The notes: generated by a model not told the origin, from the sequence alone. 64,000 bases of DNA from a virus (IMGVR_UViG_3300037247_001890:96001-160000); one strand, 5' to 3'; shown: positions 43,198-49,332, numbered from the stretch's first letter. Numbers and translations: made by a program.

Positions 43198-43440
43198 ATG
43201 CGATATGAAAATCGCAAAGAAGGACACTTTAAGTTCTACGAAATTGATTTAATTCCAGGACCACCAAATGACCAAGGAAGGGACACTTACGCTGTTAGGG
43301 CTAGTTGGGGAAAAATTGGAACCGCTAAGCCACGAGCGGAAATAAAAGCAGTTGGTTCATTTGAAAGATGTTTTAAAAGAATGGAAAAATTAATCAAAAG
43401 AAGAGAACAGAGAGGTTACGAAAAAATAACCGATAAATAG
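43198..43440 (+). CDS. WGR domain protein
   Basis: HFKFYEI...VRASWGKIGT...KLIKRREQRGY. Confidence 0.8.
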   Translation: MRYENRKEGHFKFYEIDLIPGPPNDQGRDTYAVRASWGKIGTAKPRAEIKAVGSFERCFKRMEKLIKRREQRGYEKITDK

Positions 43441-43477: not shown

Positions 43478-43849
43478 ATGATAGATCTAAACACACCTTT
43501 AGGAACATATTCCAAAAAAGGTACCATTGAAGACATTCAAGTAGAAACAGTAATGATTCCCATGGAAGGCGACGAACCGGCAAAAGAGAGAGAAAAGATT
43601 TGCTTAATGGTTAAACGGGAAGATGGAAAAATTATCCGAGTAAATGAAGTATTCGTTAAAAATTATAACGGATCAAAAGTACAAAGGGGATTGTGGGCTT
43701 CAACTGATGCTTCCGGATCAGTTAACTTCTTTTCCACACTTGGAAAATTTATGAGAAGATACGGAAAAAACACTATAGAAGATTTAAAAGGTCTGGAAAT
43801 AGATTTGTATATAGGAGAAAAAGATCTTTTAGTTGGAAGTGTTAATTAA
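43478..43849 (+). CDS. Hypothetical protein (possibly OB-fold)
   Basis: 123 aa, beta-rich; followed by its own terminator. Confidence 0.55.
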   Translation: MIDLNTPLGTYSKKGTIEDIQVETVMIPMEGDEPAKEREKICLMVKREDGKIIRVNEVFVKNYNGSKVQRGLWASTDASGSVNFFSTLGKFMRRYGKNTIEDLKGLEIDLYIGEKDLLVGSVN

Positions 43850-43882
43850 TAGAACGGCCAGGTTACTGGCCTTTTCTATTTT
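43848..43882 (+). terminator. Intrinsic terminator
   Basis: ggccag-gtta-ctggcc followed by a T-rich tail. Confidence 0.7.
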
Positions 43883-43913: not shown

Positions 43914-45968
43914 ATGATAACAACATTCCGCAATTTAGAAATTTCCAACCAATTGCTTGGTCTTAATATAACAGAAAATGTTTTTAAAAATATAAAAAAA
44001 GTATTTAAGACTAGTCGTGATGAAAAAGTTTCAAGTAGATTCTATTATTACGTATTAAAGCCTACATACAAAATAGGGGTTTATTTAGGAGCTGGAACTT
44101 ATATGCATAATGGTGACAAAGTTGTAGAACTCACCGAAAGACGTGGAAAAGAAACTGATAATGCTTCTTGGTACCAGATAGACAACACAAAATTTAGTTT
44201 TGTGCCTACAACAGAAGAAATTAGTCACATAAGTTATTTATGTAGTACACTTCAGATGAGTACTACAAAAGACCCTATTTTTAATAGAATACAAAATTTC
44301 AAAAATAATATAATAGACTGTCTTAGAACTAAAGATTCAAAACATACATCCTCCTATGCGACAATAAATACAAATATTAGTGAAGATTCAGAACAATTAG
44401 AAGATTTAATAAATTCTATAAACTGGTTGTATGACACTGATTTTGATAAAACTGGTATCACAGAAAGTCAACTTAAAGCCATGGGAAACAAATATTCCGG
44501 ATTTGATTGGGAACTTGGCCTATTTTTTAAAGTAAGGGACATAAATGATAACAGACGTCTAGTCCTTATGGCAACACTAGGAAGTCATTATAAAGGATAT
44601 AATTATAGATGGAGAAGTTATAGTCCTTTATCATGGAGAATTCTAGATGTTCCTCATGACAATCCTGCATATAACTACATAGACGTTGGAACATACGCAA
44701 CAGAATTCGGAGACCAAATACCTGGTTCTATACAATTTGATCAGACTGTAAATTCATTACCCAAAAGCATAGAGCCAATAAAACATGCTATAGGTCGCAA
44801 AAAAGATATAATCCATATATTCGATCAGAACGCCGTTGATAAAGCTAATAAAAAATATATGCTAAAAATGGCAATGGAAAAAGATGGCGAAGATAAAAAA
44901 GAGCAAGTCAAATTAAAAATAAATTCAAGAATAAAAAACATAGATAAACAATCATTGAAATTGAATGAAGCTACTTTTAGTATTGATCAAATAGAATATT
45001 CCGGACAAATCCTGAAAAGTGACTCGGTAGATATAAGGGAATTGTTAGAAAGCCTATATAGATACCACGATTTGGATGATATCAATTATGATAGAGCTTT
45101 TGAGATGTTTATTTCTACATTAATTGGTAAAGTCATGCAAAATTATAACGACGATATCACTGCCACAATCGGGGATATTGATGTCACATTACTTCAAAAA
45201 CACGGAACGAATAAAACTGGAAGTCGATATGCTGTATATTACATAAATAATATACGAATCAATAAAGATGAGTTTGAGCCAGTATTACAGAGAGGGGCAT
45301 GTTTTGAAGATGTGCCTACATATAATAAATTTTTAAAACAAGTAAGTGAATGTTCGTTAAAAATACATGGATTACTGGATAGAGGTATAGATGTAAAAGT
45401 CAGAAGTCCGTTAAAAAATGAAATGATCATCCTTAAGCTTGAAATGATAAGAAGACACAAAAGGCAACATTTGAAAATAGGCAAAGAAATCTTTCTGATA
45501 AAAAATACTACCAGAATAGCCAACTTGCCTAAGAAGGAATACTTAGACGATGTGATAGATGTCCTTTTGAATCCAGATAATGTAGAAGGTGTAACACCGG
45601 CAAATCTAAAAACACTGGTAATTCAAGCACGTCAAGCTTATACTGATGCTATAGAAAAGTCTAAAATATTATTAGAAACAACGATTGAAAAATTCAATCT
45701 TGAAAAAACGACAGTTACTTCAAAAAATTCAAACTATACAGGCTACATAGTACCTGGAAAGATCAAAACATACTTTGTAGCATATGATAATAATAAACAC
45801 ACAAATGGTTGTGGTGTATACACGTATCCGGATATGAACTATGTTTGCATAGTTGATAAAACACCAAACCAACAAGTTGGCGTAGATAAATTCGTAAACA
45901 GAATATACGCCCTGGCCAATGATAAACTACTGGCCAAACAAATCCACACACTGAATATTCAGAAATAA
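43914..45968 (+). CDS. 684-aa uncharacterised protein, first gene of the Ubl cluster
   Basis: Ends 3 nt upstream of the Ubl gene; C-terminal domain with YVCIVD...DKFVNRIYALAND. Confidence 0.7.
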   Translation: MITTFRNLEISNQLLGLNITENVFKNIKKVFKTSRDEKVSSRFYYYVLKPTYKIGVYLGAGTYMHNGDKVVELTERRGKETDNASWYQIDNTKFSFVPTTEEISHISYLCSTLQMSTTKDPIFNRIQNFKNNIIDCLRTKDSKHTSSYATINTNISEDSEQLEDLINSINWLYDTDFDKTGITESQLKAMGNKYSGFDWELGLFFKVRDINDNRRLVLMATLGSHYKGYNYRWRSYSPLSWRILDVPHDNPAYNYIDVGTYATEFGDQIPGSIQFDQTVNSLPKSIEPIKHAIGRKKDIIHIFDQNAVDKANKKYMLKMAMEKDGEDKKEQVKLKINSRIKNIDKQSLKLNEATFSIDQIEYSGQILKSDSVDIRELLESLYRYHDLDDINYDRAFEMFISTLIGKVMQNYNDDITATIGDIDVTLLQKHGTNKTGSRYAVYYINNIRINKDEFEPVLQRGACFEDVPTYNKFLKQVSECSLKIHGLLDRGIDVKVRSPLKNEMIILKLEMIRRHKRQHLKIGKEIFLIKNTTRIANLPKKEYLDDVIDVLLNPDNVEGVTPANLKTLVIQARQAYTDAIEKSKILLETTIEKFNLEKTTVTSKNSNYTGYIVPGKIKTYFVAYDNNKHTNGCGVYTYPDMNYVCIVDKTPNQQVGVDKFVNRIYALANDKLLAKQIHTLNIQK

Positions 45969-45971
45969 AAA

Positions 45972-46214
45972 ATGATAAAACAGAAACAATTCGAAAAAAA
46001 AGAAATTACTTACCGTGTAGTTTCCCCAAATGGTCATGATGAATGTACATTCGATCATAGTACCGCTTTGACAAATATTCGCGCTTTAGTCAAAGATGAG
46101 GGAAAATGGTTATATATAAATAATGATTATGTTAACCCTGAAACTCTTACAACAAGAGATTTAGATCAGGCAGAAGATATCATTTTAACAAACGCCGTAG
46201 CTGGTGGATGTTGA
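45972..46214 (+). CDS. Ubiquitin-like (beta-grasp) protein ending AVAGG-C
   Basis: 80 aa; WLYINNDYV...IILTNAVAGGC; adjacent to the JAB and E1 genes. Confidence 0.75.
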   Translation: MIKQKQFEKKEITYRVVSPNGHDECTFDHSTALTNIRALVKDEGKWLYINNDYVNPETLTTRDLDQAEDIILTNAVAGGC

Positions 46215-46218
46215 CAAT

Positions 46219-46244
46219 AGGGGAGACTTGTCTCCCCTTTTTTT
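46219..46244 (+). terminator. Intrinsic terminator between Ubl and JAB
   Basis: aggggagac-tt-gtctcccct followed by a T-run. Confidence 0.75.
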
Positions 46245-46259
46245 AAATAGGACACTAAA

Positions 46260-46769
46260 ATGGATAGAATAGACATTGCTTCTGACCTAATGGAGCAATT
46301 AAAAAATTACGGAAAAAAATACTACCCTGGGGAATGTTGTGGCCTTTTAACTGGCATAACTCGACGTATAAACAATAATGTTAGATCGGTACCAGTAGAA
46401 TTTCATCCAATTGATAATGTCAGTAAAGAACCATATAAATGGGATTACGTTATGGATCCAAATCAATACATGAATGTGTTGAAAAATACAACCTTATTTA
46501 ACAAAAAATCTGCAATTGAATTAACTGCAATATTTCACACGCATCCGAATAACCTACCAATTCCCAGTCAGTACGATATTATTGGGGCGGCATGGTATAC
46601 TGCATATTTGATTTACGGGATAGCTACAGATTCTATGGCGGCATGGTTCTGGGATGGTACATTCTTCAAAAGAATACCCATCAATGAAGAAAAAATAACG
46701 CAAGATACCGTCTATGCTGATGGAAAAGAAAGGGATTGGGAATCATGGAAACATGTAGGATCGCTATAG
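46260..46769 (+). CDS. JAB/MPN+ (JAMM) metallopeptidase
   Basis: PGECCGLL and FHTHPNNLPIPSQYD (E...HxH-x7-S-x2-D). Confidence 0.9.
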   Translation: MDRIDIASDLMEQLKNYGKKYYPGECCGLLTGITRRINNNVRSVPVEFHPIDNVSKEPYKWDYVMDPNQYMNVLKNTTLFNKKSAIELTAIFHTHPNNLPIPSQYDIIGAAWYTAYLIYGIATDSMAAWFWDGTFFKRIPINEEKITQDTVYADGKERDWESWKHVGSL

Positions 46770-47347
46770 TTGGAGCAGGCGGTATTGGGAGTTATCTCTG
46801 CAAAGAAATGCACAACTTCCATAAGCACGATCAATTCGGAGCATGCAATGTTGAGATAACTGTATGGGATAATGATACAGTTGATATGAAAAATCTAAAA
46901 TACCAAAATTTCCAAGAGTTTGATTTAGGTGACAACAAAGCAGAAGTGATTGGCATGAGATATGATTTTGATTATGAAATAGAACGGTTAGAAGAAGAAG
47001 CCGCATTTAACAATTATAATGTAATAATCGCAGCAGTAGATAATAGTAAATTTCGCAGATTACTTTATAATTGGGCTGAAAAAAATGCAGAAACATACTG
47101 GATAGATCTAAGATCAGAAGGTAGAGCAGTTGCGTTTTTCACACAACATAGAAGTAATACATTAGAAAAAATGCTTGATACATTAGCCGATACACCAGAG
47201 GAAGGTACCAGTTGTCAATTGGCATTTGAATTGGAAAAAGGCATTATACAACAAGGTAACAAAATAATAGCCGCAATAGGTTCACAATTATTTATCAACT
47301 ACTTGCGACAAGAAAAAAATTCATCTAAATTCATAGCCAGGTTTTAA
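46736..47347 (+). CDS. ThiF/E1-like adenylyltransferase
   Basis: IVGAGGIGS, WDNDTVDMKNL.YQ, NKAE, AVDNSKFR, WIDLR, TSCQ (candidate catalytic Cys). Confidence 0.9.
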   Translation: MGIMETCRIAIVGAGGIGSYLCKEMHNFHKHDQFGACNVEITVWDNDTVDMKNLKYQNFQEFDLGDNKAEVIGMRYDFDYEIERLEEEAAFNNYNVIIAAVDNSKFRRLLYNWAEKNAETYWIDLRSEGRAVAFFTQHRSNTLEKMLDTLADTPEEGTSCQLAFELEKGIIQQGNKIIAAIGSQLFINYLRQEKNSSKFIARF

Positions 47348-48114: not shown

Positions 48115-49332
48115 TTGAAATTTGAAAATTATCTAAAATTTGGAAAAAAATTAATTATTGAAGGTTTTGCAGAAGAAAATTTCATAAAAAATTCTAAAGA
48201 CGATTTAATAGGATTTGGAATAGATAGTGATAACAGAGTTCTTCATATGTTTACAGATACATATGAATTAATTGAATCTACTAGGAAAGGCCTTTTAAAT
48301 ATTGATGGTCAATTTTATACGGATATGCCACCTTATGAGTATGTATTTAAAATAGATAGTCAGTTTTATGCTATTTTCTACACTTTAATTCACGGGGTGG
48401 ATTACAGATACAAAGCTTCTATTGTTAAAAAAGATATGACGCAAGAAGAAGGAATACAAATACTTAGGAAATTGGTAAAAGACTATGTCAATCATAGAAA
48501 ACAAATACAAGCAAACCTGTTTAAAAGAAGTGAAAAAATTCTAGATGACGTCATATTACCCAAAGAACTTAAACAATCCATATTAGGTGATATAAGAAAT
48601 TTCTTAAACAGTAGAAAAAAGTATAAAGAATTTGGAATGGTCTGGAAAAGGGGTTATATTTTTCACGGACCTCCTGGAAATGGTAAAACACTCTTCTTGC
48701 GAAAACTTGGCGGGGCCTTTGGATTAAATATGACTGATATGACTAACAGATTAGATCAAGATGGTACCCTAAGATTGCCACAACATGCAGAACCATACGA
48801 AAACGGCAGTAGTAGTCTCAGTTTAGGTAAATTAGCTTCTGGAGATGATGAAGACAATCCTCCAGAGATTTATTACTTAGAAGATATGGAAAAAGTCATT
48901 GGTAAAAATGATGCTGATTTTGGTAGAATTACACTATCCAATTTCCTAACTGCTATTGACGGTGTTTCACGTTTGGCTGATGGTTTGATAATTATAGGTA
49001 CAACGAATCACAAAGATAGGCTAGAGAGTGCAATTATAGGTCGTCCAGGAAGATTCGATAGGGTTTATGAATTTGCAAGACCTACGAATGCAGAAATATA
49101 CAAATTCTTTGAACGTAGAAATTTTTTGATTGAGAATAAAAAGGTGACTACCGAATATTCGGATTTGATGACGAGAAAAAACTTTAGCATGGCTTTTGTT
49201 GAAGATTTTATACTATCCTGTGTAACAAAAGTCGACAAGCACATAATATCGACATCTATTGCGGATTCAGTAATCAAAGACCTAGAACAATATAACAAAC
49301 TTGAAGTCGAGTCAAACATGGGATTCAAATAA
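48115..49332 (+). CDS. Classic-clade AAA+ ATPase (single module, BCS1/FtsH-like)
   Basis: KRGYIFHGPPGNGKT, YLEDME, FLTAIDG, TTNH, RPGRFD. Confidence 0.9.
   Translation: MKFENYLKFGKKLIIEGFAEENFIKNSKDDLIGFGIDSDNRVLHMFTDTYELIESTRKGLLNIDGQFYTDMPPYEYVFKIDSQFYAIFYTLIHGVDYRYKASIVKKDMTQEEGIQILRKLVKDYVNHRKQIQANLFKRSEKILDDVILPKELKQSILGDIRNFLNSRKKYKEFGMVWKRGYIFHGPPGNGKTLFLRKLGGAFGLNMTDMTNRLDQDGTLRLPQHAEPYENGSSSLSLGKLASGDDEDNPPEIYYLEDMEKVIGKNDADFGRITLSNFLTAIDGVSRLADGLIIIGTTNHKDRLESAIIGRPGRFDRVYEFARPTNAEIYKFFERRNFLIENKKVTTEYSDLMTRKNFSMAFVEDFILSCVTKVDKHIISTSIADSVIKDLEQYNKLEVESNMGFK

Follow-up and report, generated by a model that had tools for sequence, protein, structure and literature searches.

A four-gene cassette in a clade of environmental phages that probably encodes a ubiquitin-like protein conjugation cascade

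Introduction

Conjugation of ubiquitin-like proteins (Ubls) in bacteria has so far been understood as a form of host immunity, as in the Cap2/Cap3 proteins of the cyclic oligonucleotide-based antiphage signalling system (CBASS), in Bil and in Bub. Can a bacteriophage own such a pathway? The question is raised by four genes on the + strand of virus record IMGVR_UViG_3300037247_001890, at positions 43914-47347 of the stretch analysed here (the window), which is 64,000 nucleotides long and corresponds to bases 96001-160000 of the 169,274-bp IMG/VR record. This record has a completeness of 85% (CheckV), and tail sheath, baseplate, helicase and primase genes are all present in it. An initial annotation, made from the DNA alone, proposed that the virus carries its own protein-tagging set, and that proposal stands insofar as a coherent Ubl, activating enzyme (E1) and JAB peptidase are encoded together in this phage record, next to a protein of 684 amino acids (aa). 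We conclude that the locus probably encodes a phage-borne ubiquitin-like protein conjugation cascade. No description of a phage cassette of this kind was found in the literature searched.

Gene content of the cassette

The four contiguous genes of the initial annotation were all recovered as open reading frames (ORFs) with operon-like packing, encoding proteins of 684 aa, 80 aa, 169 aa and 200-203 aa. The gap between the genes for the 684-aa protein and the Ubl is 3 nt, and the JAB and E1 genes overlap by 25-34 nt. The features of the locus, including a region that we propose resembles ubiquitin-conjugating enzymes (E2), are as follows.

43914..45968 (+): 684-aa multidomain protein; an ORF whose family is viral except for one cellular match and has no match in Pfam, PHROGs, NCBIfam or PADLOC
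45597..45968 (+): proposed E2-like carrier domain, UBC/UEV/RWD-like, residues ~562-684, from the predicted model
45846..45848 (+): codon of Cys645 (YVCIVDK), candidate thioester cysteine, from invariance and position in the model
45972..46214 (+): 80-aa ubiquitin-like protein ending AVAGGC; an ORF with a predicted beta-grasp fold
46219..46238 (+): terminator-like hairpin and T-run between the Ubl and JAB genes; an 8-pair stem (5 GC), then TTTTTTT
46260..46769 (+): 169-aa JAMM/MPN+ metallopeptidase (Prok-JAB), from Pfam
46736..47347 (+): minimal E1-like adenylyltransferase (Pfam ThiF), 203 aa from TTG, with a likely start at ATG 46745
47213..47215 (+): codon of E1 Cys160 (TSCQ), candidate catalytic cysteine, from invariance and alignment to PRTRC ThiF

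The public gene call for the E1 (P0201) is 200 aa long and begins at ATG 46745. The cassette sits in a + strand block of replication and nucleotide-metabolism genes, in the order RecU, class II ribonucleotide reductase, cassette, sigma-70 factor and DNA polymerase I, and is distant from the tail genes. Two terminator-like hairpins on the + strand, at 43856-43871 and 46219-46238, flank the gene pair for the large protein and the Ubl, the second directly preceding the JAB gene; this arrangement could yield more large protein and tag than JAB and E1. The hairpin at 46219-46238 is confined to close relatives, and in one relative (L002) the Ubl and JAB genes overlap.

The ubiquitin-like protein, E1 and JAB peptidase

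The 80-aa protein has no match in Pfam, PHROGs, PADLOC or NCBIfam, and a PDB profile search with it returned only noise. Its model (predicted local distance difference test, pLDDT, 82) has a beta-grasp topology with the element order beta-beta-alpha-beta-beta-alpha-beta. The best 50 Foldseek matches of this model in the PDB are all ubiquitin-family modifiers, led by SUMO, NEDD8 and ubiquitin, and the bacterial Bil Ubl is among its matches in VIA-align, so that a check for a beta-grasp fold suggested in the initial annotation came out in favour of a Ubl. The Gly-Gly pair is invariant across 18-19 homologues and forms the exact C-terminus in 15 of 19 distinct ones. A one-residue cap is thus a minority state, and the tails found beyond Gly-Gly are GG-C in the present phage, GG-N at two loci and GG-NAN at one. 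Since most homologous tags end at a free Gly-Gly, trimming of a cap cannot be what this JAB peptidase does in general, and the earlier idea that the Cys cap makes activation JAB-dependent fails as a property of the family. The nearest Arg or Lys upstream of Gly-Gly is R62; after trypsin digestion a conjugated protein would retain 17 residues of the tag, and standard diGly mass spectrometry would be unsuitable.

The E1 matches the Pfam ThiF family (PF00899) with an E-value of 1.7e-15 and 57.3 bits (cut-off 28.1), consists of a single domain and is the sole copy in the 169-kb record. Its family comprises at least 532 clusters at 90% identity, with lengths of 179-215 aa. Among 121 E1 sequences the GAGGIGS loop, D45, Q57, K68, D102, R107, D124 and R126 are invariant, as are S159-C160-Q161, Q172, G174, N175, N188 and R191; D47 is also present. 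The candidate catalytic cysteine in TSCQ and the absence of CxxC pairs, both remarked on in the initial annotation, proved to be general: Cys160 is found in 121 of 121 sequences, and the family has no conserved CxxC. Cys160 may be the counterpart of the crossover-loop cysteine of MoeB and ThiF. Chains matched in the PDB are the E1s ThiF-type 9egb, MccB, Cap2, UBA3, TcdA, UBA5 and UBA1.

The nearest relatives of the phage E1, homologous to it over the full length, are the ThiF proteins of PRTRC cassettes. The best NCBIfam model is PRTRC ThiF (TIGR03736), at 69.8 bits and below its cut-off of 144.75, and the scores against the ThiF and MoeB equivalog models are far under their cut-offs. In a tblastn search of a plasmid collection, the best full-length matches were annotated PRTRC ThiF proteins (~28% identity over 95% of the length), and hhalign aligned the phage E1 family with plasmid PRTRC ThiF over 187 columns (probability 98.7%, E 3.8e-16), pairing Cys160 with the cysteine of the PRTRC ThiF DSC motif. 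Judged by these alignments, the phage E1 belongs to a branch whose cellular members are tied to E2 and JAB proteins and not to cofactor synthesis. Cultured phages have only distant ThiF genes.

The 169-aa protein matches Prok-JAB (PF14464; E 1.9e-10, 41.1 bits against a cut-off of 25) and is likewise present in a single copy in the 169-kb record. Its JAMM motif, described as intact in the initial annotation, is complete (E25 ... H93-T-H95-x7-S103-x2-D106), and all five residues are invariant in 19 homologues. The best NCBIfam match is a desampylase model, with 56.9 bits under a cut-off of 130, and the PHROG matches are tail-protein families. PADLOC gave weak matches of the JAB peptidase and E1 to CBASS JAB and E1-E2 models, the best being 1.8e-6 over 75 residues. 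The JAB peptidase is more likely to be chiefly a deconjugase than an obligatory maturase; deconjugation is the role of Cap3 and BilC (PMC11601596).

The large protein and its C-terminal domain

The 684-aa protein is absent from cultured phages (blastn, tblastn) and the ESM Atlas offered no usable lead for it. It has 17 close homologues in an index of 5.8 billion proteins, and a profile scan of 1.84 billion representatives with its family returned 539 clusters (50% identity, E<=1e-3), 241 of them at E<=1e-30. An AlphaFold2 model built from an 82-sequence alignment has a pLDDT of 86.7 and a predicted template modelling score (pTM) of 0.73. R215, D257, R513, Y620, C645 and D670 are invariant in all 82 sequences. 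A Foldseek search of the model against BFVD found just three unnamed viral homologues.

A comparison of the model with 48,161 PDB representative chains by VIA-align, considering the best 50 rows, gave modest scores. Approximately 20 of these 50 rows are UBC, UEV or RWD chains aligned to residues ~567-684, including E2S (4.5), Ubc9 (4.1), Ubc13, UBE2F, UFC1 and Ube2W, along with GCN2 and other RWD domains (4.5-3.5), kinetochore RWD domains and the CBASS E2 (8hsb_B, 3.3). The modelled tail comprises a long helix (562-593), four strands (598-603, 606-614, 619-623 and 635-638) and three further helices (657-668, 670-673 and 678-681), an element order which, in the model, matches that of E2 enzymes. 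Cys645 lies in a loop of the model 7 residues past strand 635-638 and 12 before helix 657-668, and would thereby occupy the position of the E2 active-site loop. This cysteine is invariant in 82 of 82 representatives and in every locus with the module, within the motif Y-[IV]-C-[IM]-V-D-K. The initial annotation had suggested a non-canonical E2 function for the 684-aa protein and singled out cysteines in NGCGV and YVCIVD; the latter is the invariant Cys645 in the UBC/RWD-like domain, and the NGCGV cysteine is not conserved.

The same 684-aa protein has a second conserved set of residues, C463, C480 and H485, in a helical region, which could be a metal site or include a second relay cysteine. 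Its N-terminal 560 residues gave weak and scattered VIA-align matches, among them a YkuJ-like piece at 395-464 and a small beta-barrel at ~195-320. When stand-alone relatives of the C-terminal domain were sought, everything recovered was a fragment of a member of the 684-aa protein family. Weak matches to Pfam DUF7737 (window 45591-45965; 9087-9461 in the relative L010) were seen in 5 of 18 C-terminal domains, the best at 3.5e-4 and covering profile positions 5-64 of 103. The DUF7737 family itself has matches in Deinococcus radiodurans and Bacteroides thetaiotaomicron, and no mention of it was found in the literature searched.

Distribution and inheritance

An IMG/VR scan with the 684-aa protein recovered 30 loci, ~17 of them distinct, at identities down to 30-35%. 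The order large protein, Ubl, JAB, E1 is kept in all 30, and likewise in a further clade member, L031. A second locus scan was seeded by the phage sigma factor and was independent of the cassette; it identified 11 further loci with all four genes, and more distant sigma relatives have none of the four within 10 kb. The co-occurrence check proposed in the initial annotation therefore finds the four genes together in 30 IMG/VR and 11 sigma-seeded loci. The gene arrangement is not due to chance, and gain and loss affect all four genes together. Synteny extends to a wider block comprising ribonucleotide reductase, a 123-aa gene (p123), the four genes, 1-3 small genes, sigma factor and DNA polymerase I, and this conserved block indicates vertical inheritance of the cassette within the phage clade, in contrast to a mobile island. 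A search for the large-protein family in ~185,000 cellular species genomes yielded one match, on a 9.9-kb contig of a metagenome-assembled genome (MAG) that carries the same cassette.

Two relatives illustrate the loss of the cassette. At 4468-6649 of L055, a 308-aa calcineurin-like metallophosphoesterase stands in place of the cassette between p123 and sigma, with the reductase kept. At 5387-9915 of L080, the reductase and p123 are followed by two very AT-rich genes for paralogues of the large protein, of 643 and 652 aa and separated by a 78-aa ORF, and then by sigma. L080 has no Ubl, JAB or E1, and both of its paralogues are without C645, C463, C480, H485, R215, R513, R663 and D670 while retaining N351, Y362, N445 and Y620. 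For this single lineage, such a loss would be the pattern expected if the missing residues serve Ubl chemistry.

Additional ORFs of 226-273 aa were observed between the Ubl and JAB genes of some relatives (L007 9817-10497, L009 9754-10575 and L017 9650-10429; also L010, L040 and L068). They have no family match and no cluster is shared by three or more loci; they could be inserts of the mobile endonuclease type or an added component.

Proposed pathway and alternatives

In the pathway that we infer, from adenylation and both thioesters to isopeptide-linked conjugates, a target and a gain for the phage, the beta-grasp protein would expose a C-terminal Gly-Gly, in the present phage once the JAB peptidase has trimmed one Cys. 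The minimal ThiF-type E1 would then adenylate the Gly-Gly end with ATP and probably load the tag on Cys160, from which it would move to Cys645 in the UBC-like tail of the 684-aa protein. The ~560-residue N-terminal part of the same protein may pick the targets, amounting to a hybrid of E2 and target-selecting ligase (E3), and the JAB peptidase would mainly reverse or edit the conjugates. Because the cassette is vertically inherited in the replication and nucleotide-metabolism block of a large, uncultivated myovirus-like clade, its most likely site of action is the interior of the infected cell, with host or phage proteins as targets. A more specific version of this proposal holds that the cascade is vertical and nearly confined to viruses, and that a stripped-down E1 of ~200 aa transfers a SUMO-like tag to a giant E2/E3 hybrid, with its Cys645 tail and second conserved Cys/Cys/His site, which tags specific host or phage proteins during infection; we advance it tentatively, at slightly less than an even chance of being correct in full.

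Several observations weigh against such a cascade. Some concern the E2-like tail: Foldseek of the full 684-aa model found no match in the PDB, so that, on the UBC/RWD fold check put forward in the initial annotation, the resemblance of the tail comes from the modest VIA-align scores. Pfam E2 families did not match any of 18 C-terminal domains even at E<=10, a PDB profile search with the C-terminal domain gave noise and no E2 chain, and hhalign to two Prok-E2_D proteins returned probabilities <1%. There is also no conserved HPN motif upstream of Cys645, a motif that is missing from many bacterial E2-like families too (PMC1779556). For the E1, an invariant Tyr56 (121 of 121 sequences) occupies the Arg position of NLxRQ, where PRTRC ThiF and the PDB E1s have Arg. 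Together with the stripped-down size of ~200 aa, this residue could mean that the chemistry differs from that of usual E1s. The protein begins only ~8 residues before the Gly loop and would lack the N-terminal helix of MoeB-type enzymes. The PDB E1s align to its N-terminal half only (residues ~2-108), short of Cys160, which leaves the crossover-loop placement of this cysteine putative. Finally, a SAMP-like route to conjugation needs no Cys645.

Such a route would be modelled on archaeal sampylation or Thermus TtuB, with the E1 passing the Ubl straight to lysines and the 684-aa protein acting, in place of a carrier, as a dedicated substrate, a scaffold or a regulated enzyme with its own function. 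It accords with the lack of a sequence-level E2, with desampylase being the best NCBIfam match of the JAB peptidase, and with the C463/C480/H485 set and the many invariant polar residues of the large protein that lie outside the tail. In L080, from which the Ubl, JAB and E1 genes have been lost, p123 and two copies of the large protein remain, which suggests in addition that the large protein has a tag-free function. However, the desampylase match is far below its cut-off, the tail resembles UBC/RWD domains above any other fold class among the PDB representatives, and Cys645 is invariant, sits at the E2 cysteine position in the model and is lost from the L080 paralogues along with the Ubl genes. 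We consider E2-independent tagging unlikely on this balance. The small protein might instead be a sulfur carrier that is converted to a thiocarboxylate and supplies sulfur to a reaction catalysed by the 684-aa protein, for example the synthesis of thio-modified nucleotides, tRNA or DNA, with nucleotide-metabolism genes as neighbours of the cassette. Sulfur could be supplied by a host enzyme, but no rhodanese, cysteine desulfurase or PP-loop ATPase is present in the 169-kb record: Rhodanese, Aminotran_5 and ATP_bind_3 were not found in it, and controls matched in 13-14 of 14 genomes. The absence of thiamine, molybdenum cofactor and thiolation partners noted in the initial annotation thus extends over the whole record. 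Moreover, the E1 has no rhodanese domain, its nearest relatives (PRTRC) partner E2 and JAB proteins, the best matches of the tag are SUMO, NEDD8 and ubiquitin, the cassette comes with a UBC-like domain, and the large protein matches no sulfurtransferase family, which together make a sulfur carrier quite improbable.

A further alternative concerns the role of the cassette and not its chemistry, and is compatible with the conjugation cascade. The genes could serve defence or exclusion, as a Bil-like weapon against competing phages or as a means to strip or swamp host Ubl defences. All characterised bacterial E1/E2/JAB/Ubl operons are anti-phage (PMC11601596; PMC10097602; doi 10.1101/2023.09.04.556158), and the PADLOC matches of the JAB peptidase and E1 to CBASS models, weak as they are, point in the same direction. 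Against such a role, no defence model was matched above noise in PADLOC, the large-protein family is nearly absent from cells with its one match in ~185,000 genomes, and the cassette passes vertically as one element of the conserved replication block that runs from ribonucleotide reductase to the sigma factor and DNA polymerase I, unlike a variable island. We regard a role in defence or exclusion as very improbable.

Comparison with known systems

On two plasmids, the PRTRC cassettes (ParB-related, ThiF-related cassette) have genes for Prok_Ub and Prok-E2_D next to ThiF, along with one for a DUF2016+Prok-JAB protein and one for an alpha-hel2 protein. By their domain content they look like the fourth operon type of Iyer et al. 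2006, which combines an E1, an E2, JAB-N/JAB, a small Ubl and an alpha-helical protein (PMC1779556). In the literature searched, no functional study was found of PRTRC cassettes, which occur on plasmids and integrative and conjugative elements. The phage cassette is similar to them in having the JAB gene directly upstream of the E1 gene, a small Ubl and a carrier candidate with a conserved Cys. It differs in that the phage E1 is 50-80 residues shorter, has Tyr for the canonical Arg and scores under the TIGR03736 cut-off; the phage Ubl has no Prok_Ub match, the large protein is neither Prok-E2_D nor alpha-hel2, and the JAB peptidase is without JAB-N/DUF2016. The Ubl, JAB peptidase and large protein have no match to the PRTRC models of NCBIfam or to PRTRC proteins compared directly. 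The phage cassette also lacks a ParB gene, and its family is viral save for the one MAG contig.

Type I/II Bil operons have the same set of components (BilA Ubl, BilB E2, BilC JAB and BilD E1; PMC11601596; doi 10.1101/2023.09.04.556158). The Bil E1 is a multidomain protein with inactive and active adenylation domains and a Cys domain, in contrast to the single ~200-aa domain of the phage E1, and the Bil E2 is a stand-alone protein of bacterial defence whereas the phage E2-like domain forms the tail of a 684-aa protein encoded in a viral replication block. Type II CBASS, with a Cap2 E2-E1 fusion and the Cap3 JAB, is more readily distinguished: there is no CD-NTase or effector among the phage neighbours, the phage tag is a separate beta-grasp protein and not the C-terminus of a cyclase, and the E2-like domain is not fused to the E1.

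The SAMP/UbaA/HvJAMM1 and Thermus TtuB/TtuC systems resemble the phage cassette in their small beta-grasp protein ending in Gly-Gly, small ThiF-type E1 and JAMM peptidase. Unlike the phage cassette, to which a UBC-like domain with an invariant Cys is added, these systems have no E2 and also serve in sulfur transfer, alongside rhodanese domains and thiolation enzymes. A phage-encoded pair of Ubl and JAB is also known from the TAPI Ubl and TAPK JAB-NlpC/P60 proteins of lambda and T1 (PMC1779556), which are without an E1, lie in the tail module and have a role in tail assembly, whereas an E1 is part of the present cassette, which belongs to the replication block. Predicted archaeal viruses often have ThiF/MoeB genes (PMC8276007), and an Asgard virus encodes E1-like proteins.

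The traits that set the phage cassette apart are its viral ownership, its minimal E1 and an E2-like domain that is invisible to sequence methods and fused to a large protein. The complete cassette is stably kept, in a core-like manner, across a widespread environmental phage clade and is nearly absent from cells. If the proposed cascade is correct, phages turn to their own ends the same chemistry that bacteria use in immunity, as eukaryotic viruses exploit ubiquitin, and this would be the first full pathway of E1, E2, Ubl and deubiquitinase shown to be used by bacteriophages and not against them. The very small E1 with its unusual active-site Tyr would then help to define the minimal requirements for Ubl activation, the tail of the large protein would represent a new E2-like lineage beyond sequence detection, and the four genes would offer a tractable system for finding what a phage must tag. 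The "ThiF/MoeB auxiliary metabolic genes" of viral metagenomes (PMC8276007) can be genes of conjugation cassettes and not of cofactor synthesis.

Host assignment and flanking genes

Contigs of the clade (P0012 and L001, a 155,895-bp contig; L031, PWNH01000053.1) have been deposited in the bins Thermoplasmatales archaeon SG8-52-4 and Methanomassiliicoccaceae archaeon. Their sigma-70 factor, bacterial-type DNA polymerase I and RecU point to bacterial hosts and to misbinning. Such misbinning may bear on reports of ThiF genes as typical of archaeal viruses (PMC8276007).

The gene immediately upstream of the cassette is conserved in position.

43478..43849 (+): 123-aa upstream neighbour (p123), from conserved synteny; not a firm cassette member

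It is found upstream of the cassette in 16 of 17 distinct loci, and we considered it as a fifth cassette gene. This was dropped on the grounds that p123 is kept without the four genes in L055 and L074, in the latter directly preceding sigma, and that the hairpin at 43856-43871 divides it from the cassette in the window. It has no match in Pfam, PHROGs, PADLOC or NCBIfam and gave only noise in a PDB profile search, and a RegA-like lead from the ESM Atlas was sub-threshold (0.87) and was not adopted. The gene between the ribonucleotide reductase and p123, at 43198-43440 (+), encodes a stand-alone WGR-domain protein of 80 aa (Pfam 1e-9), which this phage shares with its closest relative, L001, and with no other relative.

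On the downstream side, the third gene after the E1, at 48115-49332 (+), encodes an AAA+ ATPase of 405 aa that belongs to the classical clade. NCBIfam matches it best to FtsH, proteasome-activating nucleotidase and Cdc48, in each case far under the cut-off, and PADLOC matched it to IetA at 1e-10. The possibility that it reads tagged proteins was dropped, as the gene is nearby only in the closest relative. At the position of the ribonucleotide reductase, which is ~660 aa long here, some relatives (L012, L014, L020, L021 and L028) have genes encoding 850-1419 aa, which suggests inteins or a different reductase class.

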